NCBI GenBank assembly: GCA_903844645.1
Contig: CAIMUP010000013.1
Location: 1,428 to 65,427, forward strand
Reading direction: 5' to 3'
DNA: 64,000 nt
Source of the DNA: an uncultured Bacteroidota bacterium
Lineage (GTDB): Bacteria > Bacteroidota > Bacteroidia > AKYH767-A > JABDAW01
Positions 8,719-45,344 of the stretch are shown here, piece by piece. The translations under genes were made by a program, and so were the position numbers. How positions within the stretch are numbered: the stretch's first letter is position 1; each line of letters starts with the position of its first letter. The notes under the pieces are model-generated. The model saw only the letters and a program-made list of their open reading frames with translations, did no database searches and was not told the DNA's origin.

Positions 8719-8926
8719 GACCTGTTTAAAGTTTATGTCGGTCTGTTTAAAGTTTGTATCGGTCTGTTTAAAGTTTAAACAGGTCTGTTTAAAGTTTGTA
8801 TCGGTCTGTTTAAAGTTTAAACAGGTCTGTTTAAAGTTTAAACAGGTCTGTTTAAAGTTTGTATCGGTCTGTTTAAAGTTTAAACAGACCTGTTTAAAAT
8901 TTGTACAGACCTGTTTAAAAACTATA
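8719..8926. repeat. Array C: 21-bp tandem repeat, about 10 copies, two alternating variants
   Basis: The units are ggtctgtttaaagtttgtatc and ggtctgtttaaagtttaaaca, starting at 8719, 8740 ... 8908. Junctions of the b-type variant create the 9-bp inverted repeat tttaaacag-gt-ctgtttaaa. Confidence 0.95.
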
Positions 8927-9076
8927 TTGACATAGTAAAATGTTATTAATCATAGCATTTATGCTTTTCAGAGGGTAAAATATGCAATAATTACTAAAAA
9001 TAAATCTTCAGAAAATAGTTTAATCGGAATATTATCCCGTTCTTTGCCGCCGTAAAACCAATAAATACATATTAAA

Positions 9077-9712
9077 ATGTCTAACCTACTACCAGGCACA
9101 CCGATAAAAGCAAGTCGCAAATTCATGACTTTCGGAAGAGTAAAGCTTATTGCTGAATATGAATTAGTGAAAACGGGAATGACCAGTCCTGCCGGCATCG
9201 GTCATTATGCAAATCCTACGGTTGCATTCGCCACCATGGACCCTATCAAGCAGGCAATTACTGATGCCTATAACTTAAAAGATAAGGTAACGATGCGGGC
9301 AAGGATCAAGGATTTGAAAGATGACATGCGCAAGAACGCGACTTTTGCTGAAGAACATTGTAACAACGACCTCGCCACGTTGTTATTGAGCGGTTACAAA
9401 GAAGCTCAACAGGGTGGTGGTCCTGAAATAGCCATTGGCGGCACTACTAATTTGAAAGCTGGCGATACAGGAATTGTTGGCGAAATGAAAGGAACTTACA
9501 GAAGACCAGCTGGAACGAAACATGTCGAGGGATGGAGCAAGTTACACAGTGCTCCGGAAACTGCCTGGGCATTGACTGCTGTGACAGATGTCGGAGAAAT
9601 CTTCTGGACAGGCGTAGCGAAAGGTGTGGAAAACGATTACAAAGTTCGTAGTGGTGCCGGTCGCAGAAAAGGTGCATTCAGTTCGGTAGTTACCGAGATT
9701 TGCAGGTATTAA
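9077..9712 (+). CDS. orphan protein P1 (array-fronted, unknown function)
   Basis: This 211-aa ORF has no signal peptide, a helical N-terminal half and a beta-rich C-terminal half. It is preceded by array C and followed by a hairpin terminator. Confidence 0.6.
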   Translation: MSNLLPGTPIKASRKFMTFGRVKLIAEYELVKTGMTSPAGIGHYANPTVAFATMDPIKQAITDAYNLKDKVTMRARIKDLKDDMRKNATFAEEHCNNDLATLLLSGYKEAQQGGGPEIAIGGTTNLKAGDTGIVGEMKGTYRRPAGTKHVEGWSKLHSAPETAWALTAVTDVGEIFWTGVAKGVENDYKVRSGAGRRKGAFSSVVTEICRY

Positions 9713-9735
9713 TTTAAGAATTAAATAAACAGGAA

Positions 9736-9768
9736 AGCCTTCGAATTGCAACATTCGGGGGCTTTTTA
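9736..9768. terminator. hairpin terminator between convergent P1 and acpH
   Basis: The stem agccttcgaa / ttcgggggct is 10 bp (two G-U pairs) and is followed by ttttt. Confidence 0.6.
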
Positions 9769-10356
9769 ATTTCTATTTGATGCCAATTTATCTTTCGCGA
9801 ATTCCATAATCTGCGGGAAGAACTCCTTGAATTCCTCGGCATATAAATCGTAATCTTTTTTTAAATCATGAATCGAAAGTTCCATCTTCGATTGGAATTT
9901 GGCACGGCGAGCCATCCCCGCCAACACCCGTTCCATCCCCTCGAAGTTAGCATAATTATAGAGCCAATTATATTCTATCATATACGGCATCATCCGCCGA
10001 ATACCTGCCGGAAGAATGGCATCCCTCGCAAGGACTATCTCGTAACAAGATTCGGAATAATCGCTTAATGAAATGTCGGAATAATCCCCCCAGTTCGCAG
10101 CCAGGAAATGGTCGTAGAAGATGTCAATAATCACCGGGGAATATTTGTGATACATCGGTCTCAACCGAACTTTTCCACGCTCCACAATAGGGTGCGTATC
10201 GGTGAATTCATCAATGCCGCGATGCAGTTCGATGCCTTTAATAATACCTACCGAATAACCATCGTAATGCTTGCCCACGACCTGGTCGGCAATAAAATTC
10301 CCAATCATTACTTCAGGGTCATCCCCCGAAAGGTAAAGATGAGCGAGAAAATTCAA
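9766..10356 (-). CDS. acpH: acyl carrier protein phosphodiesterase (AcpH family)
   Basis: The N-terminus MNFLAHLYLSGDDPEVMIGNFIADQVVGK is characteristic of AcpH/DUF479, at 196 aa. Confidence 0.8.
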   Translation of the reverse strand: MNFLAHLYLSGDDPEVMIGNFIADQVVGKHYDGYSVGIIKGIELHRGIDEFTDTHPIVERGKVRLRPMYHKYSPVIIDIFYDHFLAANWGDYSDISLSDYSESCYEIVLARDAILPAGIRRMMPYMIEYNWLYNYANFEGMERVLAGMARRAKFQSKMELSIHDLKKDYDLYAEEFKEFFPQIMEFAKDKLASNRN

Positions 10357-10362
10357 TTGGAA

Positions 10363-10923
10363 TTACTTCACCTTTCCGCAGTAGCCGGAAGTGCGGGTAT
10401 CTATCTTAATAATCTCCCCGATATTCACGAAAAGCGGCACCTGAATCTCGGCACCAGTCTCCAGAGTAGCGGCTTTGAGGGTATTGGTAGCGGTGTTTCC
10501 GCGTTCGCCAGGCTCGGTATAGGTAACTTCTAATTCCACAAAAGTCGGCACATCGCCAATGATCGGGGTCTCGCCCTCGAAGGCTACTTTCACAATCATT
10601 TCTTCTTTGAGGAAACGAACATTTTCCCCGAATAATTCCTCGGGAATATGTACCTGTTCGTAAGTTTCATTATCCATACAAACCAAGTGCTCACCTTCTT
10701 TGTAGATGAATTGCAGTTCCTTGTATTCCATCCTGACCAGCTCCACTTCCTCGCCAGATCGGAAGCGATATTCTGCCGATTTGCCGGTCTTTACATTCTT
10801 CATTTTAGCTTGATAGAAAGCACGAAGATTTCCCGGAGTCCGGTGTTGGTATTCGGTTATTACGCACAATTCGCCGTTGAATCTAATGACCGATCCGAGA
10901 TGAATATCTGATGTTGTTGCCAT
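10363..10923 (-). CDS. efp: translation elongation factor P
   Basis: This 186-aa protein has the N-terminal IRFNGELCVITEYQHRTPGNLRAFYQAKMKNVKTG pattern typical of EF-P. Confidence 0.95.
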   Translation of the reverse strand: MATTSDIHLGSVIRFNGELCVITEYQHRTPGNLRAFYQAKMKNVKTGKSAEYRFRSGEEVELVRMEYKELQFIYKEGEHLVCMDNETYEQVHIPEELFGENVRFLKEEMIVKVAFEGETPIIGDVPTFVELEVTYTEPGERGNTATNTLKAATLETGAEIQVPLFVNIGEIIKIDTRTSGYCGKVK

Positions 10924-11009
10924 AGTCTTTATTAAATATAAATTATTATTAAGGGCGGCAAAAATAGGAAAAGGATTTGAGAATGGAATTCGGGCAGTGC
11001 AAATGGTTA

Positions 11010-12275
11010 TTAATTGTTGTTGGATTTTGTTTTAGAATAATGATGCTTCAAGAAAACAAACCAGGCAATGAGTGTACATACCGCCCCCAGCCACATCGTG
11101 AAACTAATCAGTTGAGCCACTACGAAACCCGCTAATATCGGGGGAATGGCTGATGATAGCGAGATGATGCTTTGGTTGATGCCGATGATCTCTCCCTGGA
11201 TTGTTTTATCTGTTGAATTAGAGACGATGGCAAGGGAATTAGGATAGACGAATCCTTGGAATATCGGCAGGAATGGGAACCAGATAAGCGTCATGATGAA
11301 GTCAGTAGGGATGAGCATCAACAGATAACTCAACGCAAAGACGGGCATGAAGATGAGCATGGCGCGTTCCGGCGTGAAATATTTGGTAATCGGGCGGATG
11401 AGGATGCCTTGCGTGATGCCCACCCAGAGGCTGAACCAGGCAATGACATAGCCTAATGTCTTGACATCGAAATCGAACTTTATCTTGGCATATTCCTGAT
11501 AATAAATAATGAAAAAAGCGAAGCCGAGATTCATCAAGAAGATGACAGCGAAGATGTTCTTGAGGTCAGCATTGCGAAAGGCTGTCCTTACATTCCGGAA
11601 GCCTGTAAGAGGAGAAATAATGCTGTCGGGATTGCTGTGAATCATGTCAGGGAATTTAATCAGAAGGAAAATAACATTGGCTAAGGAAAGCAAAGCGATG
11701 AAGAAAAAGGGAGTTGCGAAATTGAACCAACTGACAATGGAAGGGTCAGATAAAAGCCCGCTGCATATAGCTCCTACGATGAATCCCATGCCGAAGCCAA
11801 CGCCGACTAATCCGAAGTTCTTTGCCTTGTTTTCATCCGTACTGTAATCTGCTATGGCAGATTGAACCACCGGCAAACTTGTTCCGCCTAAGCCCGCCAA
11901 AGTCCTTGCGGTGAGCAGTATATAATATTCTTTAAGATAGATTCCAAGCGCGAAAAGCAAGTAGCAAAAGATATTCACAGTGAAGGCAAAAGCGATGACT
12001 TTCTTTCTCCCTATCCTATCCGATATGGCTCCGAGAATAGGTGCTCCGATGAATTGTCCCAGCGACCAGAAGCCCGCCATCAGCCCGAACTTCAAGGTCT
12101 TTTCTGATAATGGAACGGAGGAAGCGAAGATGCTTTGCTTGGCATCGAAATAGATGGAAGCAAAGATCGGGAACGCTACTCCCATCGCGAAATAGTCAAT
12201 GAAGACGGTGAGGAAAATGATGAACAGCGAGAGGTTTGTGTTTTTGTTATTTGGAGAGGATGTTAGCATTGGCAT
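11010..12275 (-). CDS. MFS transporter (drug:H+ antiporter-like)
   Basis: It has a 12-TM layout and MFS motif A (GAISDRIGRKKVI). Confidence 0.85.
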   Translation of the reverse strand: MPMLTSSPNNKNTNLSLFIIFLTVFIDYFAMGVAFPIFASIYFDAKQSIFASSVPLSEKTLKFGLMAGFWSLGQFIGAPILGAISDRIGRKKVIAFAFTVNIFCYLLFALGIYLKEYYILLTARTLAGLGGTSLPVVQSAIADYSTDENKAKNFGLVGVGFGMGFIVGAICSGLLSDPSIVSWFNFATPFFFIALLSLANVIFLLIKFPDMIHSNPDSIISPLTGFRNVRTAFRNADLKNIFAVIFLMNLGFAFFIIYYQEYAKIKFDFDVKTLGYVIAWFSLWVGITQGILIRPITKYFTPERAMLIFMPVFALSYLLMLIPTDFIMTLIWFPFLPIFQGFVYPNSLAIVSNSTDKTIQGEIIGINQSIISLSSAIPPILAGFVVAQLISFTMWLGAVCTLIAWFVFLKHHYSKTKSNNN

Positions 12276-13761
12276 AATGTTTTTTGTTATGGATTAAATA
12301 ATTCAATTGGTACAAAGAGAATTTAGAATTACTCCAAAGCAAAAGAGGCTTATCGGGATAAATCATTAGGAATTTTTTTGTAGAATCATCGGGGAGGTCG
12401 GTGCAGGTCAAGAGGTATTGAACATTGTACTTCAAATTATTATATGCAATGCTTTCTAATGATTGATTGGCACATAAAATTGTTCGGCGATCAGTATAGA
12501 GATTCAATGCCCTTGGCTTGTTGAATGCAATTTTTGCATCCATCGGAGTATTCCTTTTTATATATTCAAATGCTTCGACAGCTTCTGCTTCCTGCGGTCC
12601 TGGCAAGGTTTCGTTTTGATGTCGGATGATGTTGATGGCACTGAATGAATAAGGAATCAGGATGAATAAGCCGAGAGAAAGGATGATGATATTCTTCTTG
12701 AGTGGGGAATTAATCTTCACCATCATTAAACCAATTACAGTATAATAAATAAGGATGGGAAAGACAGGAAATAAGAATCGCATTCCTGAATTCATATCGG
12801 GATAAAGCAGGAGCGCAAAGAGATAGATGATGACGAAGAAGTCAATGAAATCAACCTTCCTGAAACATTTCTTCAGGAAGCCGATGGTGGTAAATAGCAC
12901 CACCAGCCATTGTGTAAGGATGGCGAGTAAAGGGAATACACCTCCGCCAGACATGAAGAAATATCTGAACGAATGGAGGTAATAACTTGCCTTCATTCGC
13001 AAGATAGGAAAGGATATTGAAGCGAAGTATTCACTGCCGATACCTATTTTAAACAATGCCTTAAAGTCTATCAATACAAACACTATCGTGATGGTGATGA
13101 CTAATGCTCGCTTCATTATTTCAAGTTTTATAGCATTGTTTCTTCTGTTTTTCCATAAGGATATGATGTCTTCAAGAATCAAAGCGGCAAGCAGCACAAT
13201 GCCGATGGTTCGGATGGAAATAAGGATGCCGAGAAGCAATCCGGTAAGGAGATATTTCAATGTCTTGTTTCCTTTTGTCTTTGAATAAACAAGGATCACA
13301 AGGATCAGGAATAAGGTGAATGGAATATCAGACATGATCTCCTCTTTGAAGTTCAAAGTGAAGGGATTATAGGCGAAGATCAGGACTAACAAGATGGAGA
13401 CAAGATCGCTGAAATGCTTGCGGTAGAAGGAAAAGAGTGCTATGCAGAGCAGGAATAGGATAAATGTAACAGTGATGACAAATCCTTTTATACTATTCCC
13501 AACATACAGACAAGTCATTGCCAGGATGAGTGGGAAACCCACAGGACGAGCGGAGATATGCACTCCCGGACTTCTTATATCATCAATGAATCCCGTCGCT
13601 GATTGCGGAATTCCTTTGGTGATGTTTATCGCTTGATGAATGTATTGCGCGAAGTCGTCGCCCCAGTCGTGGCTGTTGCGGATATTGATGAAGAACAAGG
13701 GAATACAGAGGGCATACACAAGTGCAGATGCCATGAACTTCCTCTTAAACAACTTATCCAT
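12247..13761 (-). CDS. polytopic membrane glycosyltransferase-like protein (GT-C / family 39-like, tentative)
   Basis: It has many TM segments, an N-terminal [13 protein letters not shown] loop and a soluble C-terminal domain. The start is uncertain (ORF runs to 13794), and it overlaps the upstream gene end and the downstream MFS start. Confidence 0.6.
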
Positions 13762-15334: not shown

Positions 15335-15546
15335 GATGGTGGCAAAGAAAGGAAATTCGTGGGGCAGGGATGGAAAACTTTTTTTTCAGAGAATTGTATT
15401 TCTCCACTATTTTTAGTATCATTGCAACCTCGAACAAAAAATGAAGCCTCAAAACACATATAATAATCTCGCAAATCTCTCCAATAATTTTGGAGGTGGG
15501 GCTTGCATATTAAATAGAGTTTGTGTAAACTCGAAGCCGCCTCAAT

Positions 15547-15577
<31 letters not shown>

Positions 15578-15658: not shown

Positions 15659-15951
15659 ATTAAAGTTTCCAAAAATTTCCGCGATTTTTCAGGAATCTTG
15701 GTCAAGTCGCCAGAGTTTTGACCAAAGTTTCATACGCCCCAGCCAAAGTGTGCCGAACTTCAGCCAAAGTTTTGGAAACTTTGACCAAAGTCCAGCGACT
15801 TTGACCAAAGTAGATGAAGATTCGGTTGAGGTTTCTGAAACTTTGACCAAAGTGGGCTTCACCGTGGTCAAAGTTTCTGCTTTCTCGCCCAAAGTTTCCG
15901 GAAATTCCTCCAAAGTTTCCCAAAAATCCCCCAAAGTTTCTGAAACTTCGG
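15659..15951. repeat. Array D: degenerate 21-bp-phased array with conserved core CCAAAGT(TT)
   Basis: Core starts fall at 15722, 15743, 15764, 15785, 15805, 15847, 15868, 15889, 15910 and 15931, giving spacings of 21,21,21,20,42,21,21,21,21. The sequence between cores is variable. Confidence 0.85.
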
Positions 15952-16076: not shown

Positions 16077-16778
16077 ATGATCATAAATTACAGAGGTCCT
16101 TACAAAGCGGCTACGCTTGACGGGCAAATTGACCAAATCCGAATCATCGGAGTAAAAATGGGAACGTACAAATTAACGTTGGACCTTCTCCAACCGAACA
16201 TTGACCGGGTGAACAACACCTACCTGATGCTTAAATATGTCGATGGCTGCGAAAACAGCGTGGACGGCTACAAAAAAAATCTGAACGATTACAAGCATGA
16301 ATTGTTGAGCGGCGACAAGGCGCATCAGATGAATGCGTTCCCCGTGATGGAGGCGTTTGCCACCGCCCCTGCCGCTACCAAAGGCGGTATTTGGCATTTT
16401 ATCGAAAGCCAACGGAGCATCATGATGGAGCATGATAATTGGACGGACGGCATCGGCGAAGACATGCACCTTTTAGGTCCGATGCGCCAGTTGGATTCTA
16501 ACCTTTATGTGCCCGAAGTGAGGCTGAAAGTGCGAGCCGGAGTTATCGAAGCGATTACCGATTCGGCGATTATCACGAATCATAAACTCTATGTCGGACC
16601 GCAAGGCATTGACCCGATTCCGTTTATCACCGATTTTAAAGGTGCTAAATACGAATATCACCGCACCATCGCGCCCCCGACGACTTCCGAAAAGCTGAAT
16701 GTAATGATTCGCGGCATGTTCGATAATGAAATTATAGGGCACGATTCGGCAATCGTACAGATAGCTTATAAAGGATAA
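16077..16778 (+). CDS. orphan protein P2 (array-fronted, unknown function)
   Basis: This 233-aa ORF has no signal peptide and is preceded by degenerate array D. The start could instead be the internal Met (MGTYKL). Confidence 0.6.
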   Translation: MIINYRGPYKAATLDGQIDQIRIIGVKMGTYKLTLDLLQPNIDRVNNTYLMLKYVDGCENSVDGYKKNLNDYKHELLSGDKAHQMNAFPVMEAFATAPAATKGGIWHFIESQRSIMMEHDNWTDGIGEDMHLLGPMRQLDSNLYVPEVRLKVRAGVIEAITDSAIITNHKLYVGPQGIDPIPFITDFKGAKYEYHRTIAPPTTSEKLNVMIRGMFDNEIIGHDSAIVQIAYKG

Positions 16779-27935: not shown

Positions 27936-28142
27936 AGCTTGTAGTTTATAGTAATTTTTTACAAAAATAGGGATTGTTTTTACACTATCCAAATTTATTT
28001 CAAAAAATGTTTCACTAATCCGCTTCGTCGTATTGTTGCGCCGCGAAAGCGGATGCATTCATACGACGATGATGGTATTAAATACGACCATCCATACCAT
28101 TCTCTGAAAGAGTATCTTTGCATCCTTAATAATAATAAAGGT

Positions 28143-28646
28143 ATGAAGATAAATTTTATATTGGATGGGTTCGATTTTGATGATACCCACCAGGCTCATC
28201 AGGTGTTTGAGAATATTGGGCAAGAGATGGGGAGGGTAATTACCGATAAATTGCGCCATTTGGTGGGCTTTCAGGATGAGCATGGTCAGTTTGGCGGCAC
28301 GATAGAGATTCATGCGAGCATTCATGGTCCTGATTTGAACAAAGCAGATACCGCCCAATATAATAAGGAGTACGATTACTATTTTGATGTTCAGGATGCA
28401 GACCATATTGTGGTCGTTCCGAAGAAAAAAGGTGGTACCAATCCTGATAATATTACCAAAACGGAGAAGACTTATCTGCAAGAAATGATTGATGGTACTT
28501 CCAATAAAATTATTGCTGATGATCATGACAAAAATATAGAAACGGTGAAGTCAAACAAGAAAAGTATTCGATTTAAGACTAAATGCAAGACTCCGGGGGA
28601 CTTGAAAAAATACGTTGATAAACATAAACTCTTATTAAAAGAATAA
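28143..28646 (+). CDS. small protein with a C-terminal LuxR/GerE-type HTH and an unrecognised N-terminal domain
   Basis: The C-terminus ITKTEKTYLQEMIDGTSNKIIADDHDKNIETVKSNKKSIRFK fits the GerE pattern (T-x-x-E...L...G-x-SNK-x-IA......TVK......I..K). The start was set at the MKINF Met. Confidence 0.55.
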   Translation: MKINFILDGFDFDDTHQAHQVFENIGQEMGRVITDKLRHLVGFQDEHGQFGGTIEIHASIHGPDLNKADTAQYNKEYDYYFDVQDADHIVVVPKKKGGTNPDNITKTEKTYLQEMIDGTSNKIIADDHDKNIETVKSNKKSIRFKTKCKTPGDLKKYVDKHKLLLKE

Positions 28647-28850
28647 TTCACCCTTTTGAGGGATTGTTTTAGGAACTAATACCTTGTAATTTTGCATCCT
28701 TAATTACAAACAATGGATCATTACAATCACATAGCGAATACAACGGATAGCAATCACGACAGAGGCAATGCTTCTGGAAGGTTTTTCAATGGTGGCGGTA
28801 GTGATATGGATACAAATTGTAGTTTAAACATATGCCAAAAAAACTCAAAC

Positions 28851-29102
28851 ATATCTTTTAGTAACAATAAGATACCTTTTAGTAACAATAAGATACCTTT
28901 TAGTAACAATAAGATACCTTTTAGTAACAATAAGATACCTTTTAGTAACATAAAGATATGTTTTAGTAACAAAAAGATACCTTTTAGTAACAAAAAGATA
29001 CCTTTTAGTAACAAAAAGATACCTTTTAGTAACAAAAAGATATGTTTTAGTAACAAAAAGATACCTTTTAGTAACAATAAGATATGTTTTAGTTTTTCTC
29101 AC
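28851..29102. repeat. Array E: 21-bp tandem repeat, about 12 copies
   Basis: The unit is ataccttttagtaacaataag, with variants atatg... and ...aaaaag. Starts fall at 28851, 28872 ... 29082. Confidence 0.95.
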
Positions 29103-29205
29103 CATAGTAAAAGCAATAGTTGCTATGGTGATGGGTCTTTTCAGAATGCCCACCCCTCTCCCTTGTATTCAAAACCAAGTAGTAACATAATAAAATAACA
29201 ATAAA

Positions 29206-29973
29206 ATGAGTCTATTAAAATTAGTATTAGTAAAAATTTCTATCTTCATGATCATCACGAAGGCTTCCATCATGAGGCAGTACCTTTTAGATTGTGTCAG
29301 TGCGGGTTCTGCCTCCACTTTGTATGCCAATCCGGCTATTACCACTGCCTTTTATACCTCGATGACGAATGCTGCGGCTGCCATTCAGACAGCGGTAACA
29401 GTTTGTGCGGCGAACAACACGAAGGCAAACAGGGATGCCATTAAAGATGCTATCGCAGCAGGAAAAGTGGTCGCGGCAAGCTATGCTTCGCAAGTTCAGG
29501 TGATTGCCAATCTCCCTATTAATGCCGCTACCCGCGAGGCAGCAAAGACAAATATTGAACAATCGCATCTGACGGCACAAAAATTAAATCAAACAACCAT
29601 AGGAATACCCGAAACCCCTGTATTAACGGGCGAAAATAACGGCATCGGCAAGATAAAAGTAAAGGTTACCAATCCTGGCGTATCGTATGACCCTAAAACT
29701 ATTATTTTTGTTGCTGTTTCCCTGCCCATAGTGCCTGTAACGGTGCCGCCAACACCTCCTCCGGCTGACCCCGTAGTTACGCTCATAGCAGGACAAGTGA
29801 TGGTAAAGACTTCCGTGGCATGCGAAGTGATAACCATCACCCAGGATGGCAAAGGAAGAGAGGTAGATTTGGTTGGATTGACTGCCGGCACTCGCTTTTC
29901 CATCTCTGCCTACACAAAAAATGGCAATAAATTGGTGAGCGTATTGTCGAACGCTATTATCGTACAGGCATAA
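29206..29973 (+). CDS. orphan protein P3 (array-fronted, unknown function)
   Basis: This 255-aa ORF has an Ala-rich helical N-terminal half, a Pro-rich linker (PVTVPPTPPPADP) and a beta-rich Ig/Fn3-like C-terminus. It shares a weak N-terminal motif with P1 (KAS..., YANP...AF). Confidence 0.6.
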   Translation: MSLLKLVLVKISIFMIITKASIMRQYLLDCVSAGSASTLYANPAITTAFYTSMTNAAAAIQTAVTVCAANNTKANRDAIKDAIAAGKVVAASYASQVQVIANLPINAATREAAKTNIEQSHLTAQKLNQTTIGIPETPVLTGENNGIGKIKVKVTNPGVSYDPKTIIFVAVSLPIVPVTVPPTPPPADPVVTLIAGQVMVKTSVACEVITITQDGKGREVDLVGLTAGTRFSISAYTKNGNKLVSVLSNAIIVQA

Positions 29974-30044
29974 AAGGCGGAAAAGGATACTTTCAGGAAA
30001 TTTTGTATCTTTGCCACGAATAAATTGATACTAAAGCTGCCGCA

Positions 30045-30272
30045 ATGAGAAAAATAACCTTAGAGTTACCTGATTCTGTTGAATTAAATGACCAAGAAGT
30101 GGCATTATTAGTAGCCGCAAGTTTCTATGAACATGGAAAACTTTCATTAGGACAAGCCGCCGAACTGGTAGGTCTATCCAAACGGGCTTTTATGGAAGTA
30201 TTGGGCAAGTATGGAGTATCTATATTTAATTATCCTGCCTCCGACCTGTCGAGAGATGTAAAGAATGCATAA
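30045..30272 (+). CDS. UPF0175-family antitoxin-like protein
   Basis: This 75-aa protein has the motif GKLSLGQAAELVGLSKRAFMEVLGKYGV, and its stop overlaps the start of the next gene by 8 nt. Confidence 0.75.
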   Translation: MRKITLELPDSVELNDQEVALLVAASFYEHGKLSLGQAAELVGLSKRAFMEVLGKYGVSIFNYPASDLSRDVKNA

Positions 30273-30720
30273 AACAATAGTCTCGGACACGAGTTGTTTT
30301 ATCATCTTTACTAATATTGGGGAATTAGATTTGCTATTTCAGACTTATGGGCAGATAATTACTACCAAAGAAGTCGCTTTAGAATACGGCGAAGAGCTTC
30401 CTGATTGGGTAATTATCAAAGAAGCTAATGATAAAGACTTTCAACATAACCTGGAGAAGAAAATTGATAAAGGAGAAGCCAGTGCCATTGCCTTAGCAAT
30501 AGAAATTATGGATTGTACCATCATTCTTGATGATTATAAAGCCCGGCAAGTGGCAGAACAATTGGGTCTTGATATCACAGGAACGATAGGTGTTATCATT
30601 AAAGCAAAATTAAATGGAATAATACCTTCTATTATACCCTATCTGGATAAAATTAGTAAGACAGATTTCAGAATAACGGATGAACTTAAAGAACAAGCCC
30701 TCACAGAAGCTGGAGAATGA
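30265..30720 (+). CDS. DUF3368 / PIN-like nucleic-acid-binding toxin-like protein
   Basis: This 151-aa protein has an N-terminal IVSDTSCFI acidic/PIN-like start and a GEASAIALA motif. Pairing with UPF0175 is a classic arrangement. Confidence 0.75.
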   Translation: MHKTIVSDTSCFIIFTNIGELDLLFQTYGQIITTKEVALEYGEELPDWVIIKEANDKDFQHNLEKKIDKGEASAIALAIEIMDCTIILDDYKARQVAEQLGLDITGTIGVIIKAKLNGIIPSIIPYLDKISKTDFRITDELKEQALTEAGE

Positions 30721-34682: not shown

Positions 34683-34864
34683 GTACACGTGTACAATTCG
34701 TCCTGCAACTGTGTCGGAGGCAATGTTCGGTGTACTTTGCCCCAACACAGTTGTGTTTGCCAATTCTACATGTGTACTATTGGCAAACACAGTTACTTTT
34801 GCAGAAGTACACGTGTAGAATTGGCAAACACAACTGTGTTTGCCAAATGTACACGTGTACATTC
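34683..34864. repeat. Array F: roughly 42-bp tandem repeat, about 4.3 copies, built from two alternating palindromes
   Basis: It alternates GTACACGTGTAC (12-bp palindrome at 34683, 34807, 34849; degenerate at 34725, 34766) with AATTGGCAAACACA-ACTGTGTTTGCCAAAT (30-bp palindrome). The dyad centres are 21 bp apart. Confidence 0.9.
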
Positions 34865-37950: not shown

Positions 37951-38202
37951 ATGAATATCTTTTGCTTCGGGATGAATATCCTTTGCTTCGGGATGAATAT
38001 CCTTTGCTTCGGGATGAATATCCTTTGCTTCGGGGTGAATATCTTTTGCTTCGGGGTGAATATCTTTTGCTTCGGGATGAATATCCTTTGCTTCGGGATG
38101 AATATCCTTTGCTTCGGGATGAATATCTTTTGCTTCGGGATGAATATCTTTTGCATCGGGATGAATATCTTTTCATCCGGCTTCAATACATTTTCATCCC
38201 GG
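37951..38202. repeat. Array G: 21-bp tandem repeat, 12 copies
   Basis: The unit is atgaatatcctttgcttcggg. Starts fall at 37951, 37972 ... 38182. It lies between the terminator at 37870-37908 and the ppiC-type gene at 38399. Confidence 0.95.
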
Positions 38203-38358
38203 GTTAATGTCTTACATGAACTTTTCCCCGTTATAAAACCCGATTTGGAGGGGTAAAAAGGGAGGTTTTTGGAAATTCTCCACCCTCCATTTCCCACTTT
38301 TAAGTCTCCATTCCCCATTTTCCATTCCCCATTCTTTTTCCATTGTCAGGAAATTTTA

Positions 38359-38366: not shown

Positions 38367-38398
38367 CCCGCCTAACACTAAAATTATATCATAAAATA

Positions 38399-40354
38399 AT
38401 GAAAAAAATAGCAGTAAATTTTTTAATCTTAACCATCGCGATAGTAGCTACCATCGCCCTCAAAGCCCAAGGCAATGACCCGTTATTAATTACCATCGGG
38501 AATGAAAAAATCACCAAGTCGGAGTTTGAAAAGGTCTTCCGCAAAAACAACAGCAAAGGCAACCCGTCAGATCAAAAAGCCGCTGCCGATTACCTTGAAC
38601 TGTTCGTCAATTATAAATTGAAGGTCAAGGAAGCCTGCGAAATCGGGATGGATACCGCCAGCACCTTCGTAGCCGAATTGCAGGGATATAAAAAACAATT
38701 GTCCACCCCCTACCTCGTGGATAAAGAAGTTACCGACAAGCTCATGCACGAGGTTTATGACCGCATGAAAAAAGATGTTCATGCCGCCCATATCCTTTTC
38801 AAATGCCCCTCCGATGCGTTGCCCAAAGATACCCTTGAGGCTTATAACAAGGCGATGACGGTACGTATCCATTTAATAAAAGGAGAAGATTTTGCAAAGG
38901 CAGCACGCGAGAACTCTGACGATCCTTCTGCCAAAGAAAATGGCGGAGATTTAGGATATTTCTCTGCCATGCAAATGGTTTATCCGTTTGAATCAGCCGC
39001 CTTCAATGCCAAGGTAGGCGAGGTTTCGATGCCTACCCGCACTAAATTTGGTTATCATTTAATAAAAAAATTAGACGAACGGAAAGACCCGGGAGAAGTA
39101 ACCACGGCACACATCATGGTCAAGATAGCCAAAGATGCGAAGCCTGAAGATTCGACCAAAGCAGCGCAGAAGGTTGCGGAATTAGTTCAGAAATTAAAAG
39201 ATGGCGGCAACTTCGAGGAACTCGCCAAACAATATTCTGATGATGGCGGATCGAGCAAAAATGGCGGCGTTTTGCCAGCCTTCAAAACAGGTCGCATGGT
39301 TCCGGAGTTCGAGGCAGCAGCATTTAATTTGAAGAACAAAGGCGACATATCGGATCCCGTTCGGACTTCTTATGGCTGGCATATAATAAAATTAATCAGC
39401 CGTAAAGACATCGGCAGCTACGACGAAATGCAAACCGAATTGAAAGCCAGTATTGGCAAAGATTCGCGGTCAGAGGTCAGCAAGTCGTCCATGATTGCGA
39501 AGATTAAAAAAGAATATAATTTTAAACAAGACACCAAGACCCGCGATGAGTTTTTTGCTGTTTCCGATTCATCATTGATTAATGGCAAGTGGACTTCTGA
39601 TAAAGCCGAAAAACTGACAAAAACCATGTTCACCTTAGGCGATAAACAATTTACCCAAAAGGATTTCGCGACCTACATCGTTGCCCACCAAACGGCACGG
39701 AAGAATACCACGCCCCAAGCTATCGTGAACGGCATGTATGAATCTTATGTCAGCGAATCCGCGATGACTTACGAGGAGAATCGGTTAGATGTCAAATACC
39801 CTGAATTTAAAGACCTGATGCAAGAGTACAAGGACGGCATCCTCCTTTTTGATTTGACCGATAAAAAAGTATGGTCCAAGGCTGTCAAGGATACTGTCGG
39901 CATGAAAGAATATTATGAAAAGAACAAAATAAAATACCAGTGGGGCGAACGCGTACAGGCTACCATCTACAATTGTTCTTCCGAAGAAATGACCGGAAAA
40001 GTACGGGAGTTAATCAAGAAGAAAACATTGAGCAACGACTCTATCTTGGCTATCATAAACACCACCTCCCAGTTGAATCTTTCTATCAAGGAAGGGAAAT
40101 ATTCCAAGGGCGATAATCAGTTTGTTGATTCCATCAAATGGCAGAAAGGATTGTCGCCGAATGTTGTTTCCGGCAAGTCCTTTGTCTTTGTGGATGTGAA
40201 AGAAAAGCTCGCCGCCACCGGTAAAACATTGGAGGAAGCAAAAGGACTTGTTACCGCCGATTATCAGGCAGCTTTGGAGAAAGAATGGATCGCTACATTG
40301 CGAGCCAAATTTCCATTTACGGTCGATCGGAACGTGTTGGCAACGATTAAATAG
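38399..40354 (+). CDS. peptidyl-prolyl cis-trans isomerase, parvulin (PpiC/SurA-like), two PPIase domains
   Basis: It has a signal peptide and the parvulin motifs FGYHLIK and YGWHIIKL. Confidence 0.85.
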   Translation: MKKIAVNFLILTIAIVATIALKAQGNDPLLITIGNEKITKSEFEKVFRKNNSKGNPSDQKAAADYLELFVNYKLKVKEACEIGMDTASTFVAELQGYKKQLSTPYLVDKEVTDKLMHEVYDRMKKDVHAAHILFKCPSDALPKDTLEAYNKAMTVRIHLIKGEDFAKAARENSDDPSAKENGGDLGYFSAMQMVYPFESAAFNAKVGEVSMPTRTKFGYHLIKKLDERKDPGEVTTAHIMVKIAKDAKPEDSTKAAQKVAELVQKLKDGGNFEELAKQYSDDGGSSKNGGVLPAFKTGRMVPEFEAAAFNLKNKGDISDPVRTSYGWHIIKLISRKDIGSYDEMQTELKASIGKDSRSEVSKSSMIAKIKKEYNFKQDTKTRDEFFAVSDSSLINGKWTSDKAEKLTKTMFTLGDKQFTQKDFATYIVAHQTARKNTTPQAIVNGMYESYVSESAMTYEENRLDVKYPEFKDLMQEYKDGILLFDLTDKKVWSKAVKDTVGMKEYYEKNKIKYQWGERVQATIYNCSSEEMTGKVRELIKKKTLSNDSILAIINTTSQLNLSIKEGKYSKGDNQFVDSIKWQKGLSPNVVSGKSFVFVDVKEKLAATGKTLEEAKGLVTADYQAALEKEWIATLRAKFPFTVDRNVLATIK

Positions 40355-40405
40355 CAATAAATCGCTGGGCTTGTCGTTAGCTTTTCTTAATCCAATAGAA
40401 CTACA

Positions 40406-41251
40406 TTGTTCAGAATCATTTTTTGCTGCTTAATCATTTCTCTGATGACCTCCTGTTCCTATTTCAAACATAACGACGGCAATGCCGCTGTGGCAAAGGC
40501 TTTCGATGCTACTTTGAATCGGGCTGATGTCGCGGGATTGGTGCCGAAGGGCAGCTCCAAACAGGATAGTGTGATGATAGTGAAGAGCTATATTGACTCT
40601 TGGATTCGGAAGGAATTGGTATTAAGAAAAGCCGAGAAAAACCTCTCCGATGAGGCGAAGGATGTAGAGAAACAATTGGCAGATTATAAGAATTCTTTGA
40701 TAATTTATGCTTATGAAAAGGAACTGGTTCGCCAGCAATTAGATACCACGGTGAAGGATGCGGAGATCGAAAAATATTACAACGAGCACCAGGGAAATTT
40801 TGAATTAAAGGATAATATTATCAAGGTTTTGTACCTTAAATTACCGAAGACTGCGCCGAGACTTTATACCGTGAGGCAATGGTATAAATCCTCCAAGGCG
40901 AATGACCGGAAGTCGCTTGAGGACTATGCGCATCAGTATGCCGTGAATTATTATTTCGATGATAATTCGTGGTTGCAATTCGATGATTTATTAAAAGAAA
41001 TTCCGATTAAAACCTACGATAAAGAGCAGTTCTTGAAGAACAACCGGTATGTCGAAATCGAGGATTCGATGAATCTGTATTTCGTCAATATCAACGGCTT
41101 CAAAACTAAGGAAAGTACCTCGCCGCTCTCGTTTGAAAAGGATAATATCAAGAGCATTATTATCAATAAAAGGAAGCTGAAATTGATTGAGGATATGGAG
41201 AAAAAGGTGTACGACGAGGCGGTGAAGGGCAGCGATTTCAAGATTTATTAA
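40406..41251 (+). CDS. lipoprotein, chaperone-like (SurA N-domain-like, tentative)
   Basis: It has a putative TTG start and a lipobox (LMTSCS), and it sits between two parvulin genes. Confidence 0.5.
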   Translation: MFRIIFCCLIISLMTSCSYFKHNDGNAAVAKAFDATLNRADVAGLVPKGSSKQDSVMIVKSYIDSWIRKELVLRKAEKNLSDEAKDVEKQLADYKNSLIIYAYEKELVRQQLDTTVKDAEIEKYYNEHQGNFELKDNIIKVLYLKLPKTAPRLYTVRQWYKSSKANDRKSLEDYAHQYAVNYYFDDNSWLQFDDLLKEIPIKTYDKEQFLKNNRYVEIEDSMNLYFVNINGFKTKESTSPLSFEKDNIKSIIINKRKLKLIEDMEKKVYDEAVKGSDFKIY

Positions 41252-41277
41252 TAAAATGGACAAAAAGATGCTTTTTC

Positions 41278-41445
41278 TATTAAATACGACTACAATGATG
41301 CCGTCATCTCCTACAATGATAGCGTCATCTACTACAATTATGCCGTCATCTACTACAATTATGCCGTCATCTACTACAATGATGGCGTCATCTACTACAA
41401 TTATGCCGTCATCTACTACAATGATGGCAACTTCGACTACACATT
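41278..41445. repeat. Array H: 21-bp tandem repeat, 8 copies
   Basis: The unit is tgccgtcatctactacaatta. Starts fall at 41278, 41299 ... 41425. The array ends 15 bp before the surA-like ATG (41460). Confidence 0.95.
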
Positions 41446-41459
41446 TATTACATTAATTC

Positions 41460-42830
41460 ATGAAAATAATCAAAAATATAACGGGAATTTTTTTCTGCAT
41501 CGCGCTGCTGAATTCCATTGATACCGTGGCGCAGGTGAAAATTCTGGATCAAGTAGCAGGGGTGGTCGGGGATAAGGTGATTCTGCAATCCGACATCGAA
41601 TCGCAATATCAGCAATATATGCTCCAAGGCGGGGTGGATAATCCAGCCATTCGCTGCGAAATTATGTATCAGATGTTGATTAATAAACTGCTCCTGAATC
41701 AAGCAATATTAGATAGCGTAGAAGTTTCGGGCACGGCTGTAGAGGAGGAATTGGATAAACGGATGCGGTATTATATCTCCCAAATCGGCTCGCAAAAGTT
41801 GCTGGAGGAACGTATGGGAAAATCGGTATTGGAGCTGAAAGCCGACTTCAGAACGCTGATTAAAGACCAGATGCTGACGCAACAAATGCAACAAAAAATT
41901 ACGAAAGATGTGAATGCCTCGCCATCGGATGTGAAAAGTTATTACGAACACATCCCGAAGGATAGTTTGCCGAGGGTAGAATCGGAATTTGAGATACAAC
42001 AAATCGTTCGGCATATAGAAGTTACCGATGAGCAAAAAAAGGAAGTGAAGGATAAATTGGAAGGTTATAAACAAGAGATTTTGAAGGGTACTCGGGACTT
42101 TGTCGCCACTGCCGTTTTATACTCTCAAGACCCCGGTACTACTAAAAAAGGCGGTGAATTAGGCTTCTTCGGGAGGGGCGATATGCAACCTGCTTTTGAG
42201 GCTGCCGCATTCCGCCTTCGTCCGGGTGAAATATCGGATATTATTGAAACGCCGTTCGGGTATCACATCCTGCAATTGATTGAAAGAAGGGGCGAACAGA
42301 TTAATGTCAGGCATATCTTATTACATCCAAAAGTAAGCGATGATAATATTGACAAAGCGAGTAAATTTTTGGATAGTTTGAAGACGGAAATTAATAATAA
42401 AACCATCACCTTTGCCGATGCGGCGATGAAATTCTCTGATGATGCAGATACCAAGAACAATGCCGGACTGATGCAAAATGTGCAGGATGGAACAACCAAA
42501 TTTGAGGCTACCACGATGGATAAAACCCTGTTCTTCCAGATAGATAAATTGAGCATCGGGGAGCTATCGAAGCCTGTATCTTATTCTGACAGAGAGGGCA
42601 AGGCTTCGTTGCGGGTATTGATGGTGAAATCGAAAACAGCTCCGCATACCGCGAACTTGAAAGACGATTATCAGAAGATTCGCGGGGCGGCTTTGCAGGA
42701 GAAACAGAACCTCGCCTTGCTGGATTGGGTGAAGAAGAAGCGTGCTAATACGTTTGTGAATATCACGAAAGATTATCGCAAGTGCGATGCCATAAAGGAC
42801 TGGTTGAAGAATACCGCAACAACGAATTAA
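41460..42830 (+). CDS. surA: SurA-like periplasmic chaperone / peptidyl-prolyl isomerase
   Basis: It has a signal peptide, a SurA N-domain-like region and the parvulin motif FGYHILQL. Confidence 0.85.
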   Translation: MKIIKNITGIFFCIALLNSIDTVAQVKILDQVAGVVGDKVILQSDIESQYQQYMLQGGVDNPAIRCEIMYQMLINKLLLNQAILDSVEVSGTAVEEELDKRMRYYISQIGSQKLLEERMGKSVLELKADFRTLIKDQMLTQQMQQKITKDVNASPSDVKSYYEHIPKDSLPRVESEFEIQQIVRHIEVTDEQKKEVKDKLEGYKQEILKGTRDFVATAVLYSQDPGTTKKGGELGFFGRGDMQPAFEAAAFRLRPGEISDIIETPFGYHILQLIERRGEQINVRHILLHPKVSDDNIDKASKFLDSLKTEINNKTITFADAAMKFSDDADTKNNAGLMQNVQDGTTKFEATTMDKTLFFQIDKLSIGELSKPVSYSDREGKASLRVLMVKSKTAPHTANLKDDYQKIRGAALQEKQNLALLDWVKKKRANTFVNITKDYRKCDAIKDWLKNTATTN

Positions 42831-42848
42831 ATAAGAAAAATTAAGACT

Positions 42849-43817
42849 ATGGATATAAAATTTAACTCCGATGTAGAAGCAGTGGATTCCCTGGTGGGGA
42901 CTTACAAGGACCTTCGCAAAGAAATTGGGAAAGTGATTATCGGGCAAGACGATATTGTGAAGGATGTGCTGATCTCTATCTTCGGGCAGGGACATTGCTT
43001 GCTGGTGGGTGTGCCGGGCTTGGCGAAGACGCTGTTGGTGAATACGATTGCGCAGACGTTAGGCTTGACGTATAACCGGATTCAGTTTACGCCTGACTTG
43101 ATGCCGAGTGATATTATCGGGACGGAAATATTGGATGAAACTCGTAAGTTTCGGTTTATTAAAGGACCGTTGTTTGCGAATATTATCCTTGCCGATGAGA
43201 TTAACAGAACTCCACCAAAGACTCAGTCGGCGTTGTTGGAGGCGATGCAGGAACGGACTGTTACTGCTGCCGGAACGCGGTATGATTTGGGGAAGCCGTT
43301 CTTTGTGTTGGCGACGCAAAACCCGATTGAGCAGGAGGGGACTTACCCGTTGCCGGAGGCGCAATTGGATAGGTTTATGTTTAATGTGTGGTTGGATTAT
43401 CCAAAATTTGAGGAGGAGATACAGGTGGTGAAGAATACGACCTCGAATTATAAACCGGAGTTAAAAGTTATTATTCATGGGGAAGAGATTGTGTATTTTC
43501 AGGACTTGGTGAGGAGGATTCCTATTGCGGATAATGTGTTGAATTATGCGGTAACCTTGGCGCAGAAGAGCAGACCGAATACGGCATTGGCTACGGAGAT
43601 GGTGAATACTTATCTGTCGTGGGGTGCTGGTCCGAGGGCTTCGCAGTATTTGGTGATTGGGGCGAAGGTGAACGCGATATTCAATGGGAAATATTCTCCT
43701 GATATTGAGGATGTGCAGGCGGTGGCGGCGGGTATTCTGCGGCATCGTATTGTATTAAATTATAAGGCGGAAGCTGAACGGGTTTCGGTGGAGAGCATTG
43801 TTAAAAGCCTTATTTAA
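42849..43817 (+). CDS. MoxR-family AAA+ ATPase
   Basis: It has Walker A GVPGLAKT and Walker B ILADEINR, at 322 aa. Confidence 0.9.
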   Translation: MDIKFNSDVEAVDSLVGTYKDLRKEIGKVIIGQDDIVKDVLISIFGQGHCLLVGVPGLAKTLLVNTIAQTLGLTYNRIQFTPDLMPSDIIGTEILDETRKFRFIKGPLFANIILADEINRTPPKTQSALLEAMQERTVTAAGTRYDLGKPFFVLATQNPIEQEGTYPLPEAQLDRFMFNVWLDYPKFEEEIQVVKNTTSNYKPELKVIIHGEEIVYFQDLVRRIPIADNVLNYAVTLAQKSRPNTALATEMVNTYLSWGAGPRASQYLVIGAKVNAIFNGKYSPDIEDVQAVAAGILRHRIVLNYKAEAERVSVESIVKSLI

Positions 43818-43868
43818 GAGAAGAATCCGGGGGATTCAAATCAGTTTTTGGTGTCTGGAGCAGTTTAA

Positions 43869-44162
43869 CGGCTGTTGATTGGAGAAAGTCGGCTGTTGAT
43901 TGGGGAAAGTTGACTGTTGATTGGGGAAAGTCGGCTGTTGATTGGGGAAAGTCGGCTGTTGATTGGGGAAAGTTGACTGTTGATTGGGGAAAGTCGGCTG
44001 TTGATTGGGGAAAGTCGGCTGTTGATTGGGGAAACATGGACGTAGATTGGGGAAACATGGACGTAGATTGCGGAAACATGGACGTAGATTGGGGAAACAT
44101 GGAGGTAGATTGTAGAAACATGGAGGTAGATTGCAGAAACATGGAGGTAGATGGGTTTTACA
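43869..44162. repeat. Array I: 21-bp tandem repeat, 14 copies in two subfamilies
   Basis: It has 8 units of (c/t)g(g/a)ctgttgattggggaaagt, arranged cgg,cgg,tga in a 63-bp higher order. Six units of tgga(c/g)gtagattgnngaaaca follow. Starts fall at 43869 ... 44142. Confidence 0.95.
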
Positions 44163-44323
44163 CTTAAAATGCCAATAATTTTAATACAAAATGCTTTGTT
44201 TTTTCTACTTTTCATTTAATTATATCAAAAAAAGCAAAACAATTTCTCCGAAAATTTGGCAGTTACAAGAAATTTTAGTTAATTTGCATCCATAATCTAA
44301 AAGATAGACTTAAAATAACAAAA

Positions 44324-45259
44324 ATGAATCACAGAGAACTCGCACAAATGGAAAGAAACGGAGGACTGTTTACGTTCCTCGCCTTGGCTTCGAGCCATAC
44401 AATTTATGACTCCAATGGCAACTTCGTCATTGAAAGGGATGGACAAGCCGCGAAACATGTTATTACGCTTGACAAAGCCTCGAAAGCGGGGATTGACAAT
44501 AAAGGTTTTAGCGCAGATAAATTGGAAAAGAAAAACCTTTTGGCGGATGAAGCAGCGTTGCTTTCGGGCTACGCATTCGTGAAATGGGGTCCTACTAAAT
44601 TGAACAAACCAGCCTTTGCTTTACAATGCCACACGTTTGCTACGGATTATTTAGGAATTGCCGATGTTGAATGTACCGCTCTTGCACAAGCTGCTCACGA
44701 TTTGATGTTCAATAATAGCGGCGACCTGACGGGTTATGTAGCCGCGGGGGATTTGACACATTTGCAAACAACGATCAACAACTTTACGGCTGCTGACGGC
44801 TCTTCGCAATCGGTGAATGCGGCATCGCCAGCGGATACGGCAGCATTTAAAACGGCATTGAGAAACGAAAATAAGTGTATTCCTGACCTCTTATTTATGG
44901 TGCGACCTTTTAAAACGATTAATAAAACTTTCTACGATAAAGTGGTTCTGTTGTGTGAATTGCCTGCCGTTTCAGTCTTACATACCGATGTGATCGTTAC
45001 GGTTTTGAAGACGGAAAATAATGAGGTGATAACGGATGCGCATGGGACACTTTCGAACACTAAAAAGACGGACGATACGGATATTCATGGGGAATTGGAA
45101 ATAGATGAAGTACATTCTGGCAAAGCCATCTTGACGATTACGCAACCGGATCGGGTAACGATTGTGGAAGAGATAACGATTCAAATAAAGCATGTGAATC
45201 ATTATACGGTACACATGACGCTGAAACCGGTGCCTCCGCCGATACCTCCGGTGGTTTAA
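44324..45259 (+). CDS. orphan protein P4 (array-fronted, unknown function)
   Basis: This 311-aa ORF has no signal peptide, a beta-rich C-terminal third and a Pro-rich tail (KPVPPPIPPVV). It is preceded by array I and followed by two hairpins. Confidence 0.6.
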   Translation: MNHRELAQMERNGGLFTFLALASSHTIYDSNGNFVIERDGQAAKHVITLDKASKAGIDNKGFSADKLEKKNLLADEAALLSGYAFVKWGPTKLNKPAFALQCHTFATDYLGIADVECTALAQAAHDLMFNNSGDLTGYVAAGDLTHLQTTINNFTAADGSSQSVNAASPADTAAFKTALRNENKCIPDLLFMVRPFKTINKTFYDKVVLLCELPAVSVLHTDVIVTVLKTENNEVITDAHGTLSNTKKTDDTDIHGELEIDEVHSGKAILTITQPDRVTIVEEITIQIKHVNHYTVHMTLKPVPPPIPPVV

Positions 45260-45265
45260 GAAGCC

Positions 45266-45299
45266 TCACCCCTGCCCCTCTCCAAGGGGAGAGGGGTGA
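45266..45299 (+). other. GC-rich hairpin (CCCCTCTCC-AAGG-GGAGAGGGG) immediately after the P4 stop
   Basis: It is a perfect 9-bp G/C-rich stem. It resembles dispersed palindromic hairpins seen in many genomes, and there is only one copy in this window. Confidence 0.6.
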
Positions 45300-45311
45300 A
45301 TAATGAATAAG

Positions 45312-45344
45312 TCCTCTCGGTGAAAGTCGGGAGGATTTTTTTTG
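45312..45344 (+). terminator. rho-independent terminator after P4
   Basis: The stem tcctctcg / cgggagga (one G-U pair) is followed by a T9 run. Confidence 0.8.

Follow-up and report, generated by a model that had tools for sequence, protein, structure and literature searches.

Tandem arrays of 21-bp units are abundant in, and restricted to, one uncultured Bacteroidota lineage, in which they are durably paired with a few lineage-restricted genes. They were analysed here in 64,000 nucleotides of DNA from an uncultured Bacteroidota bacterium (the window; contig CAIMUP010000013.1, positions 1,428 to 65,427 of the forward strand), where an initial annotation had described four genes, P1 to P4, each fronted by a private 21-bp array (C, D, E and I, respectively). 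The positions of these arrays, 104-162 bp 5′ of their genes, were borne out by Tandem Repeats Finder (TRF) for C, E and I and by the spacing of a repeated core for D, and the open reading frames (ORFs) of the genes lie where they had been placed:

9077-9712, + strand: P1, 211 amino acids (aa), basic (pI 9.35)
16077-16778, + strand: P2, 233 aa, acidic
29206-29973, + strand: P3, 255 aa, helical N-terminal domain followed by a C-terminal FN3 domain
44324-45259, + strand: P4, 311 aa, acidic

The arrays are private in that each has a unit of its own, but nine further 21- or 42-bp arrays in the window flank other genes. Such arrays are not peculiar to P1-P4, as had been supposed: they occur genome-wide, they also front housekeeping genes, and they sit within operons and between convergent genes. 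It is this lineage-wide population that forms the object of interest.

A population of arrays with a 21-bp period

Arrays of at least three copies were counted using TRF. The window holds 13 of them (~20 per 100 kb), and in every case (13/13) the period is 21 or 42 bp:

1859-2044: array A, 8.9 x 21 bp, inside an outer membrane protein (OMP)-DUF4249 gene pair
4111-4341: array B, 5.5 x 42 bp, dyad-symmetric, in a spacer flanked by convergent genes
8711-8920, + strand: array C, 10 x 21 bp (TRF 8711-8919)
15716-15950, + strand: array D, ten (C)CAAAGT cores in 21-bp phase
28847-29093, + strand: array E, 11.8 x 21 bp
37951-38334: array F, 12.5 x 21 bp followed by degenerate copies as a tail, adjoining the promoter box of a peptidyl-prolyl isomerase (PPIase) gene
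41289-41426: array G, 6.6 x 21 bp, inside the PPIase-h281-SurA-MoxR operon
43869-44152, + strand: array I, ~13 x 21 bp, two sub-families with the common core GATTGGGGAAA
49949-50152: array J, 9.7 x 21 bp, upstream of the promoter box of an aminotransferase gene
51563-51690: array K, 6.1 x 21 bp, 32 nt before a GNAT gene
54399-54735: array L, two 21-bp sub-arrays, between convergent genes
58018-58151: array M, 21/42 bp, upstream of a DPP-IV gene (minus strand)
61985-62200: array N, 21-bp units in forward and then in inverted orientation, upstream of ribBA (minus strand)

Arrays in the loci of relatives behaved alike, 10 of 11 having a period of 21 or 42 bp at a density of 12 per 100 kb. In control loci, fetched with MoxR from diverse Bacteroidota and other phyla (160 loci, 2.2 Mb), the same period class occurred at only 0.22-0.24 per 100 kb. 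By extrapolation, each genome of the lineage may hold hundreds of arrays. Scanning genomes and metagenomes with MoxR gave no relative above 73% identity, and hence no close reference genome. Among the genes of the window are gyrA, efp, an SRP54-family member (ffh/ftsY type), ribBA and surA, the first four of which identify it as chromosomal; TAnnTTTG promoter boxes and sorting domains of the type IX secretion system (T9SS) in the window, together with GldD in a relative, are Bacteroidota traits. No Rfam family or tRNA was found in the window.

The arrays occupy diverse settings. Apart from those before P1-P4, arrays precede a DUF4249 gene, two SurA-type PPIase genes, and the aminotransferase, GNAT, DPP-IV and ribBA genes, and B and L both lie between convergent genes. 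Of the genes in the window that lack a Pfam hit, about 4 of 10 are fronted by an array, compared to 7 of 35 annotated genes, a difference that is not significant. The PPIase-h281-SurA-MoxR operon is kept across Bacteroidota with gaps of 10-130 bp that contain no array, whereas the copy in the window holds array G. Written in register, C, E and I each consist of 10-13 units running cleanly head-to-tail; the edges of arrays are degenerate, and a higher-order structure of 42/63 bp is present. At array N, the 39-bp flanks are 95% complementary, so that the whole region forms a long palindrome upstream of ribBA.

Arrays stay with P1, P3 and P4 in relatives

Homologs of P1, P3 and P4 were sought among 5.8 billion proteins, yielding five for P1 (62-67% identity), three for P4 (61-62%) and eight for P3 (41-52%). 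Judged by this conservation, all three are real genes. Eight distinct homolog loci were fetched (P1, L002 and L176; P4, L004 and L006; P3, L087, L089, L091 and L177), and in 8/8 a 21-bp array of 6-11 copies lies directly upstream on the strand of the gene. The proposal that array and gene form a module therefore holds at every fetched locus, and the genes neighbouring these loci differ from those in the window. In L089 the array before the P3 homolog is the sole 21-bp array in 20.7 kb, and across the same eight loci only ~4 other arrays were found in ~70 other intergenic regions.

The units themselves are related between orthologous loci. Compared on the same strand, array I and the L004 array agree at 15/21 positions, L004 and L006 at 15/21, and array C and L002 at 13/21, while only 1 in 3000 null unit pairs reached 15/21. 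In addition, a relic lies immediately 5′ of array C:

8690-8710, + strand: relic unit and conserved 5′ flank of the P1 array, AAAATGCAGGGCGGTTTAGCT, matching the L002/L176 unit TGCAGG(G/T)CGG...

This 5′ flank is 91% identical to L176 over 22 bp. The relatedness of orthologous units and the survival of the relic indicate that array and gene are inherited together while the units are replaced; array units at orthologous loci thus descend with turnover.

Three further observations concern these loci. The P4 homolog is split by a frameshift near codon 18 both in L004 (9768-10675) and in L005, two assemblies that perhaps derive from the same data. At 3/3 P1 loci a gene with a T9SS C-terminal sorting domain lies on the upstream side (window 7672-8652, L002 3859-5517, L176 3132-4346); its size and orientation differ, and its presence may be due to chance in genomes rich in such genes. 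Finally, both in the window (58018-58151) and in L004 (9477-9619) a 21-bp array begins just beyond the stop codon of a TMTC/TPR glycosyltransferase-like gene (64% identity between the two), although the next gene differs and the units are unrelated.

The period is conserved and the sequence is not

When 21 unit consensuses were aligned jointly, allowing all rotations and both strands, the alignment scored 8.05 bits against a null of 8.23 +/- 0.22, and no motif common to all units was found. When the 100-bp flanks of 25 arrays were each compared with all the others, likewise no common flanks or terminal inverted repeats were found; matches occurred only between orthologous loci and within array N. 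The conserved property of the arrays is the 21-bp period, equal to two helical turns, and not a sequence.

Individual arrays nevertheless have cores of their own. In array C (TTTAAACAGGTCTGTTTAAA) half of the units form a 9-2-9 palindrome, TTTAAACAG-GT-CTGTTTAAA. TRF detected just 2.5 copies in array D (15888-15940), but this array contains ten exact CAAAGT cores (mostly CCAAAGT) between 15723 and 15932, spaced by 21, 21, 21, 20, 42, 21, 21, 21 and 21 bp, where 0.16 such hexamers would be expected by chance in 400 bp. The remaining 14-15 bases of each unit are nearly randomised, and some units form ACTTTG-AC-CAAAGT. Because the 20-bp step shifts the reading frame of the core, its conservation is at the level of DNA. 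Across the arrays dyad symmetry within units is enriched, with a mean arm of 3.93 compared to 3.36 +/- 0.16 in shuffled units, a value that none of 400 shuffles reached.

Two layouts of array, promoter box and gene

Relative to predicted promoter boxes and ORFs, the arrays stand in two layouts: at P1 and P4 the array lies upstream of a putative -7 box, and at P2 and P3 it lies inside a putative leader ORF. The features concerned are:

9041-9048, + strand: predicted -7 box of P1, GTTCTTTG then CCGCC, aligning with the corresponding boxes in L176 and L002
44279-44286, + strand: predicted -7 box of P4, TTAATTTG then CATCC, 45 nt before the ATG
28687-28694, + strand: exact Bacteroidota -7 box, TAATTTTG, upstream of array E
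28713-29198, + strand: putative P3 leader ORF, 161 aa, IPFSNNK x12, covering the whole of array E, with its end 7 nt short of P3
15441-16058, + strand: ORF upstream of P2, 205 aa, containing (AC)14 and array D, with its stop 19 nt before P2
16783-16953, + strand: ORF between P2 and its terminator, 56 aa

In the P1 family a -7-type box is found 36-37 nt before the ATG (TATCTTTG in L176, TTCCTTTG in L002, GTTCTTTG in the window), within a region of ~150 bp from array to ATG that is 74% conserved. In both the P1 and P4 families the array ends ~100-130 bp upstream of the predicted -7 box, and no ATG-started ORF runs from the P1 or P4 array to the gene. Sigma-54-type promoters upstream of P1 and P4 were also considered and were rejected by eye, their spacing being unfit.

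The P3 loci are arranged differently. A -7 box lies upstream of the array in 4/5 loci and between array and gene in 0/5, and in all five an ATG-started ORF passes through the whole array to stop 6-57 nt before P3. This ORF starts 14-63 nt after the -7-like box in the four loci that have one, L089 being without a box. In shuffles of the flanks, 5-26% per locus passed for this layout, giving a joint nominal probability of ~7e-5 under criteria that were chosen post hoc. The leader peptides are not conserved between loci. At P2, 4.4% of flank shuffles passed for the upstream ORF, which is possibly a translated leader and not a conserved protein. P2 and P3 are probably not simple monocistronic units: each has an array-spanning ORF on its 5′ side, and P2 is followed by the 56-aa ORF. 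The earlier description of all four genes as monocistronic accordingly stands for P1 and P4 alone.

Several observations accompany the leader-type loci. The ORF upstream of P2 contains an (AC)14 microsatellite (15547-15574), and in L093, another assembly of the same species, a single 6-bp indel over a 6.6-kb alignment extends this ORF from 205 to 207 aa with the frame kept; the indel probably lies in the (AC)14 tract. A small protein with a C-terminal helix-turn-helix (HTH) precedes the P3 leader in three loci (window 28053-28646, L089 9059-9697, L087 6924-7562). The L089 protein matches Sigma70_r2 and r4_2, and the other two give only weak GerE or r4 matches; a conserved sigma-like gene upstream of P3 was rejected, as the three proteins are not detectably homologous. 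Directly after P3, with its own -7 box at 30006, lies a UPF0175/DUF3368 gene pair (30045-30720) that is likely a toxin-antitoxin module.

Open frames also adjoin other arrays. One frame of array K has no stop and runs on into the GNAT gene (start 51722; region 51545-52849), which may have a repeat-bearing N-terminal extension with a non-ATG start. At arrays A and G, ATG-started ORFs (1791-2081 and 41256-41456) fill the spacer from the upstream stop to the downstream start codon, which may be chance since no more than 25-34 nt separate these arrays from the gene that follows.

Properties of P1-P4

As claimed initially, P1-P4 have no family assignment. Searches of Pfam, PHROGs, NCBIfam and PADLOC were empty and, with PDB sequence and profile searches included, revealed nothing beyond the FN3 domain of P3. 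No DNA-binding domain was found in any of the four by Pfam, NCBIfam or PDB profiles. The AlphaFold2 model of P1 is unreliable (predicted local distance difference test score 33), with helices in the N-terminal half only; P1 is absent from GTDB species genomes. P1 and P3 are both basic (pI 9.4). No homolog of P2 was found in Pfam, PHROG, NCBIfam and further searches, and the gene is present in seven contigs of the same species. The 56-aa ORF downstream matches P2 residues 95-134 weakly (32% identity, E 0.1) and may be a partial duplication of it.

The C-terminus of P3 is a predicted seven-strand beta-sandwich matching FN3 structures and profiles in a model of acceptable quality; a fold search of the model against BFVD gave only FN3-level matches, and the N-terminal helical domain (~130 residues) gave no match. 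Signal peptides had been reported as absent from all four proteins, which is uncertain for P3: its N-terminus is hydrophobic (Kyte-Doolittle 1.83), and the protein may be exported or anchored in the membrane. P4 residues 226-293 give a weak match to a CarboxypepD_reg-like beta-sandwich.

Terminator-like hairpins follow three of the genes, as the initial annotation had stated; one was sought 3′ of P3 and none was found:

9732-9767, + strand: terminator-like hairpin after P1
17025-17049, + strand: terminator-like hairpin after P2 and the 56-aa ORF
45309-45338, + strand: terminator-like hairpin, then a T-run, after P4

Searches of mobile genomes were negative, with no relatives of P1-P4 in IMG/VR viral contigs, no tblastn match to P1, P3 or P4 in annotated plasmids (72,556 records) and no tblastn match to P3 in annotated phages. 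P1-P4 are lineage-restricted proteins that are best treated as four separate families, with a distant relationship between P1 and P3 possible.

How the arrays might act

We tentatively favour, at somewhat less than even confidence, a model in which the arrays are non-coding, helically phased cis-acting DNA elements that act on the adjacent promoter or leader. The invariance of the period, the dyad-symmetric cores of arrays C and D, and orthologous units that are closer than neutral DNA would be all point to phased platforms acting in cis. With a period of two helix turns, every copy of the unit would present itself on the same face of the DNA, so that a small bend in each unit, or a short and often dyad-symmetric core, would add up over 6-13 copies to a curved, one-sided platform of 130-280 bp. 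At P1 and P4 this platform would lie at ~-110 to -330 from the predicted -7 box and would modulate the promoter, via wrapping or curvature or through a dimeric factor or nucleoid protein that binds it cooperatively. At P2 and P3, where the array is downstream of a -7 box in an open leader frame, it would act within the transcribed or translated leader. Slippage in steps of 21 bp would keep both helical phase and reading frame, and the proposed neutrality of such copy changes could explain how the arrays turn over fast without losing their place. The promoter positions, the curvature, any protein binding and any effect on expression are what we infer for the arrays.

An illustrative wedge-model calculation gave an axis deflection that peaks at a period of 21 (95 degrees per 126 bp, compared to 7-20 degrees at periods of 17-19 and 23-26), and relative to background windows 9 of the 13 arrays reached the 96.6th percentile or higher. 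Several points weigh against the cis-acting model. Given the period, strong predicted curvature is an almost automatic outcome and so is not independent evidence, and arrays C, D and L reach only the 73rd-87th percentile and B the 14th. Arrays B and L lie between convergent genes, and A, G and K lie 25-34 nt before downstream genes in operons, making a promoter role unlikely for all five. Proteins that read the cores sequence-specifically would have to provide hundreds of specificities genome-wide, and no candidate reader was identified. Furthermore, with relatives too distant to offer a matched control from arrays before housekeeping genes, the conservation at P1, P3 and P4 may not be special to these genes.

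The main rival, which we regard as rather unlikely, is that the arrays are neutral or selfish minisatellites produced by a lineage-specific replication or repair bias towards 21 bp that would duplicate any non-coding DNA able to tolerate it, and that their link to P1-P4 is simply co-inheritance of a short upstream region. Such a process would account for arrays in every type of intergenic region, convergent and operon-internal ones included, for units that are unrelated and turn over quickly, for restriction to one lineage, and for the degenerate edges and 42/63-bp higher-order structure that are typical of slippage or unequal exchange. It does not readily explain why the array is kept at 8/8 homolog loci across 41-67% protein identity, even in the array-sparse L089 genome, why orthologous units still agree at 15/21 positions where neutral DNA would be saturated, why ten exact cores persist in array D amid randomised spacers, or why array lengths are confined to 6-13 copies; and we know of no mutational process that measures 21 bp. 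A coding origin of the period, 21 bp being seven codons, would make the arrays heptad-repeat peptides encoded by upstream genes or by translated leaders coupled to the gene. The array-spanning ORFs at all five P3 loci and the same layout at P2 are consistent with this, as are the in-frame 6-bp (AC)n difference upstream of P2 and the array-spanning ORFs reported by gene callers. We consider it quite improbable, since the peptides are not conserved across orthologous loci, two different frames pass through the array D core, an open frame is lacking in arrays B and N, open frames average 2.4 per array against ~3.8 expected, and no ATG-started ORF links the P1 and P4 arrays to their genes. As a general property of the arrays, protein coding was rejected because translations are not conserved, B and N are closed and the D core occurs in two frames. 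Mobile elements, in the form of minisatellite-bearing miniature inverted-repeat transposable elements (MITEs) like BrickBuilt, would share with these arrays an intergenic location, a Bacteroidota host and a unit length near 22 bp, and BrickBuilt segments have promoter activity (PMC4596501). This explanation is already largely refuted and scarcely credible: the unit differs in each array, the 25 arrays compared share no leader, tail or terminal inverted repeat, orthologous loci being the only ones that match, and arrays keep their place at orthologous positions.

The initial annotation had proposed instead that P1-P4 form a divergent paralogous family, which would here have spread as array-plus-gene cassettes, each member evolving its own array. 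We give this little credence. The modules are indeed conserved in differing genomic contexts, and an hhalign comparison of P1 and P3 gave a probability of 38%, E 3.4e-4, over 121 colinear columns that include Y-x-x-P...F; with a deeper P3 profile of 44 sequences the value was 18% over 59 columns, the Y-x-x-P...F segment still being included. An alpha-then-beta architecture is also seen in P3, although P4 offers just a weak beta-sandwich match and the unreliable P1 model is helical only in its N-terminal half. Against common descent, pairwise BLAST was unconvincing, P2 and P4 resemble no other member, every other pair compared by hhalign (all but P2-P1) scored below 1%, and none of the 75 relatives retrieved by a P3 profile search of 1.84 billion proteins is P1-, P2- or P4-like; paralogy of the four is unsupported. 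The motif that had been aligned by hand is literally present, but while Y-x-x-P...F is conserved in P1 and P3, its F-A-T part varies among P1 orthologs, and other members of the P4 family do not conserve the TFAT seen in P4. Promoter and array layouts differ between members, and unrelated housekeeping genes are also fronted by arrays. A more far-reaching version of the cis-acting model, distinctly unlikely in our view, is a lineage-wide 'period code' in which hundreds of unrelated 21-bp arrays would be read as regulatory or architectural elements, either by geometry or by a programmable reader of cores. P1, P3 and P4 would then be long-term partners of their arrays, possibly autoregulators that bind them (e.g. 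at the 20-bp palindromes of array C), leader arrays would be kept open for translation, and the arrays would constitute an undescribed class of cis-element.

Other repeats and assembly effects

A repeat of another kind occupies the divergent promoter region between an E1 dehydrogenase gene (minus strand) and a YfhO-like gene (plus strand), where a 41-bp unit is repeated 2.8 times (34744-34861). The unit is made of palindromes (TGTACACGTGTACA; TTGCCAA...TTGGCAA) and looks like a composite operator, not a 21-bp array. Metagenome contigs of the same species begin inside arrays C and E (the start of L001 and an ERZ1426548 contig start), and gene callers report array translations as proteins, e.g. 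of 110 aa (L002) and 117 aa (L087).

Comparison with known repeat systems

The closest described counterpart is BrickBuilt of Porphyromonas gingivalis, an intergenic minisatellite/MITE with a 23-nt unit common to all 19 copies, leader and tail subunits with inverted-repeat ends and the behaviour of a transposable element; it lies 49-591 nt from genes (PMC4596501). It resembles the present arrays in that a Bacteroidota genome carries many intergenic arrays, of units about two helical turns long, near gene starts. The arrays described here differ in having 21-bp units, a unit peculiar to each array (beyond chance, the units of the 21-27 arrays compared are related only between orthologs), no common ends, and inheritance in place.

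Plasmid iterons (Rep; ~19-22 bp) and parC (20-bp repeats; ParR) are tandem repeats upstream of a gene that support cooperative binding on one face and serve as operators. They are plasmid-borne and are bound by the product of the adjacent gene, Rep or the ribbon-helix-helix protein ParR. The window arrays likewise place repeats at integral helical turns upstream of a gene, with palindromic cores in C and D, but they are chromosomal, may number hundreds per genome by extrapolation and often lie beside genes for enzymes, and P1-P4 have no recognised DNA-binding fold. Contingency repeats, found mostly in host-adapted pathogens, have units of 1-9 nt and switch genes by altering spacing or frame. 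Together with variable-number tandem repeats they share with the present arrays slippage-prone repeats beside promoters or in leaders, which could tune expression, and rapid turnover. In 21-bp units, however, a change in copy number is neutral for phase and frame, and the sole polymorphism seen was the +6 bp attributed to (AC)14. Classical curved DNA contains A-tracts every 10-11 bp upstream of promoters and functions through geometry and not consensus; the window arrays similarly offer in-phase repeats upstream of promoters with a period of integral helical turns, at which the wedge model peaks, but unlike curved DNA and nucleoid-protein sites they repeat arbitrary 21-mers exactly. A CRISPR array was considered and rejected, as the units run head-to-tail without spacers and no Cas family is among the Pfam matches. 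No description of genome-wide, sequence-unrelated 21-bp arrays was found in the literature, an absence that is no proof of novelty, and the population is apparently undescribed.

For P1-P4 the claims are narrowed: they are real, lineage-restricted genes, one of them with an FN3 domain, and not a demonstrated family. For metagenomics, the arrays break assemblies and cause false gene calls, several 'proteins' in public catalogues being array translations. Many independent arrays with one period and unrelated sequences constitute a natural experiment in which effects of geometry on transcription are separated from those of specific sequence. Should the arrays prove functional, this lineage would make elements near promoters or in leaders out of arbitrary sequence, through its mere repetition at two helical turns, a cheap and fast-evolving way to obtain curved or one-sided DNA in which copy number would be a tuning knob that keeps phase and frame.

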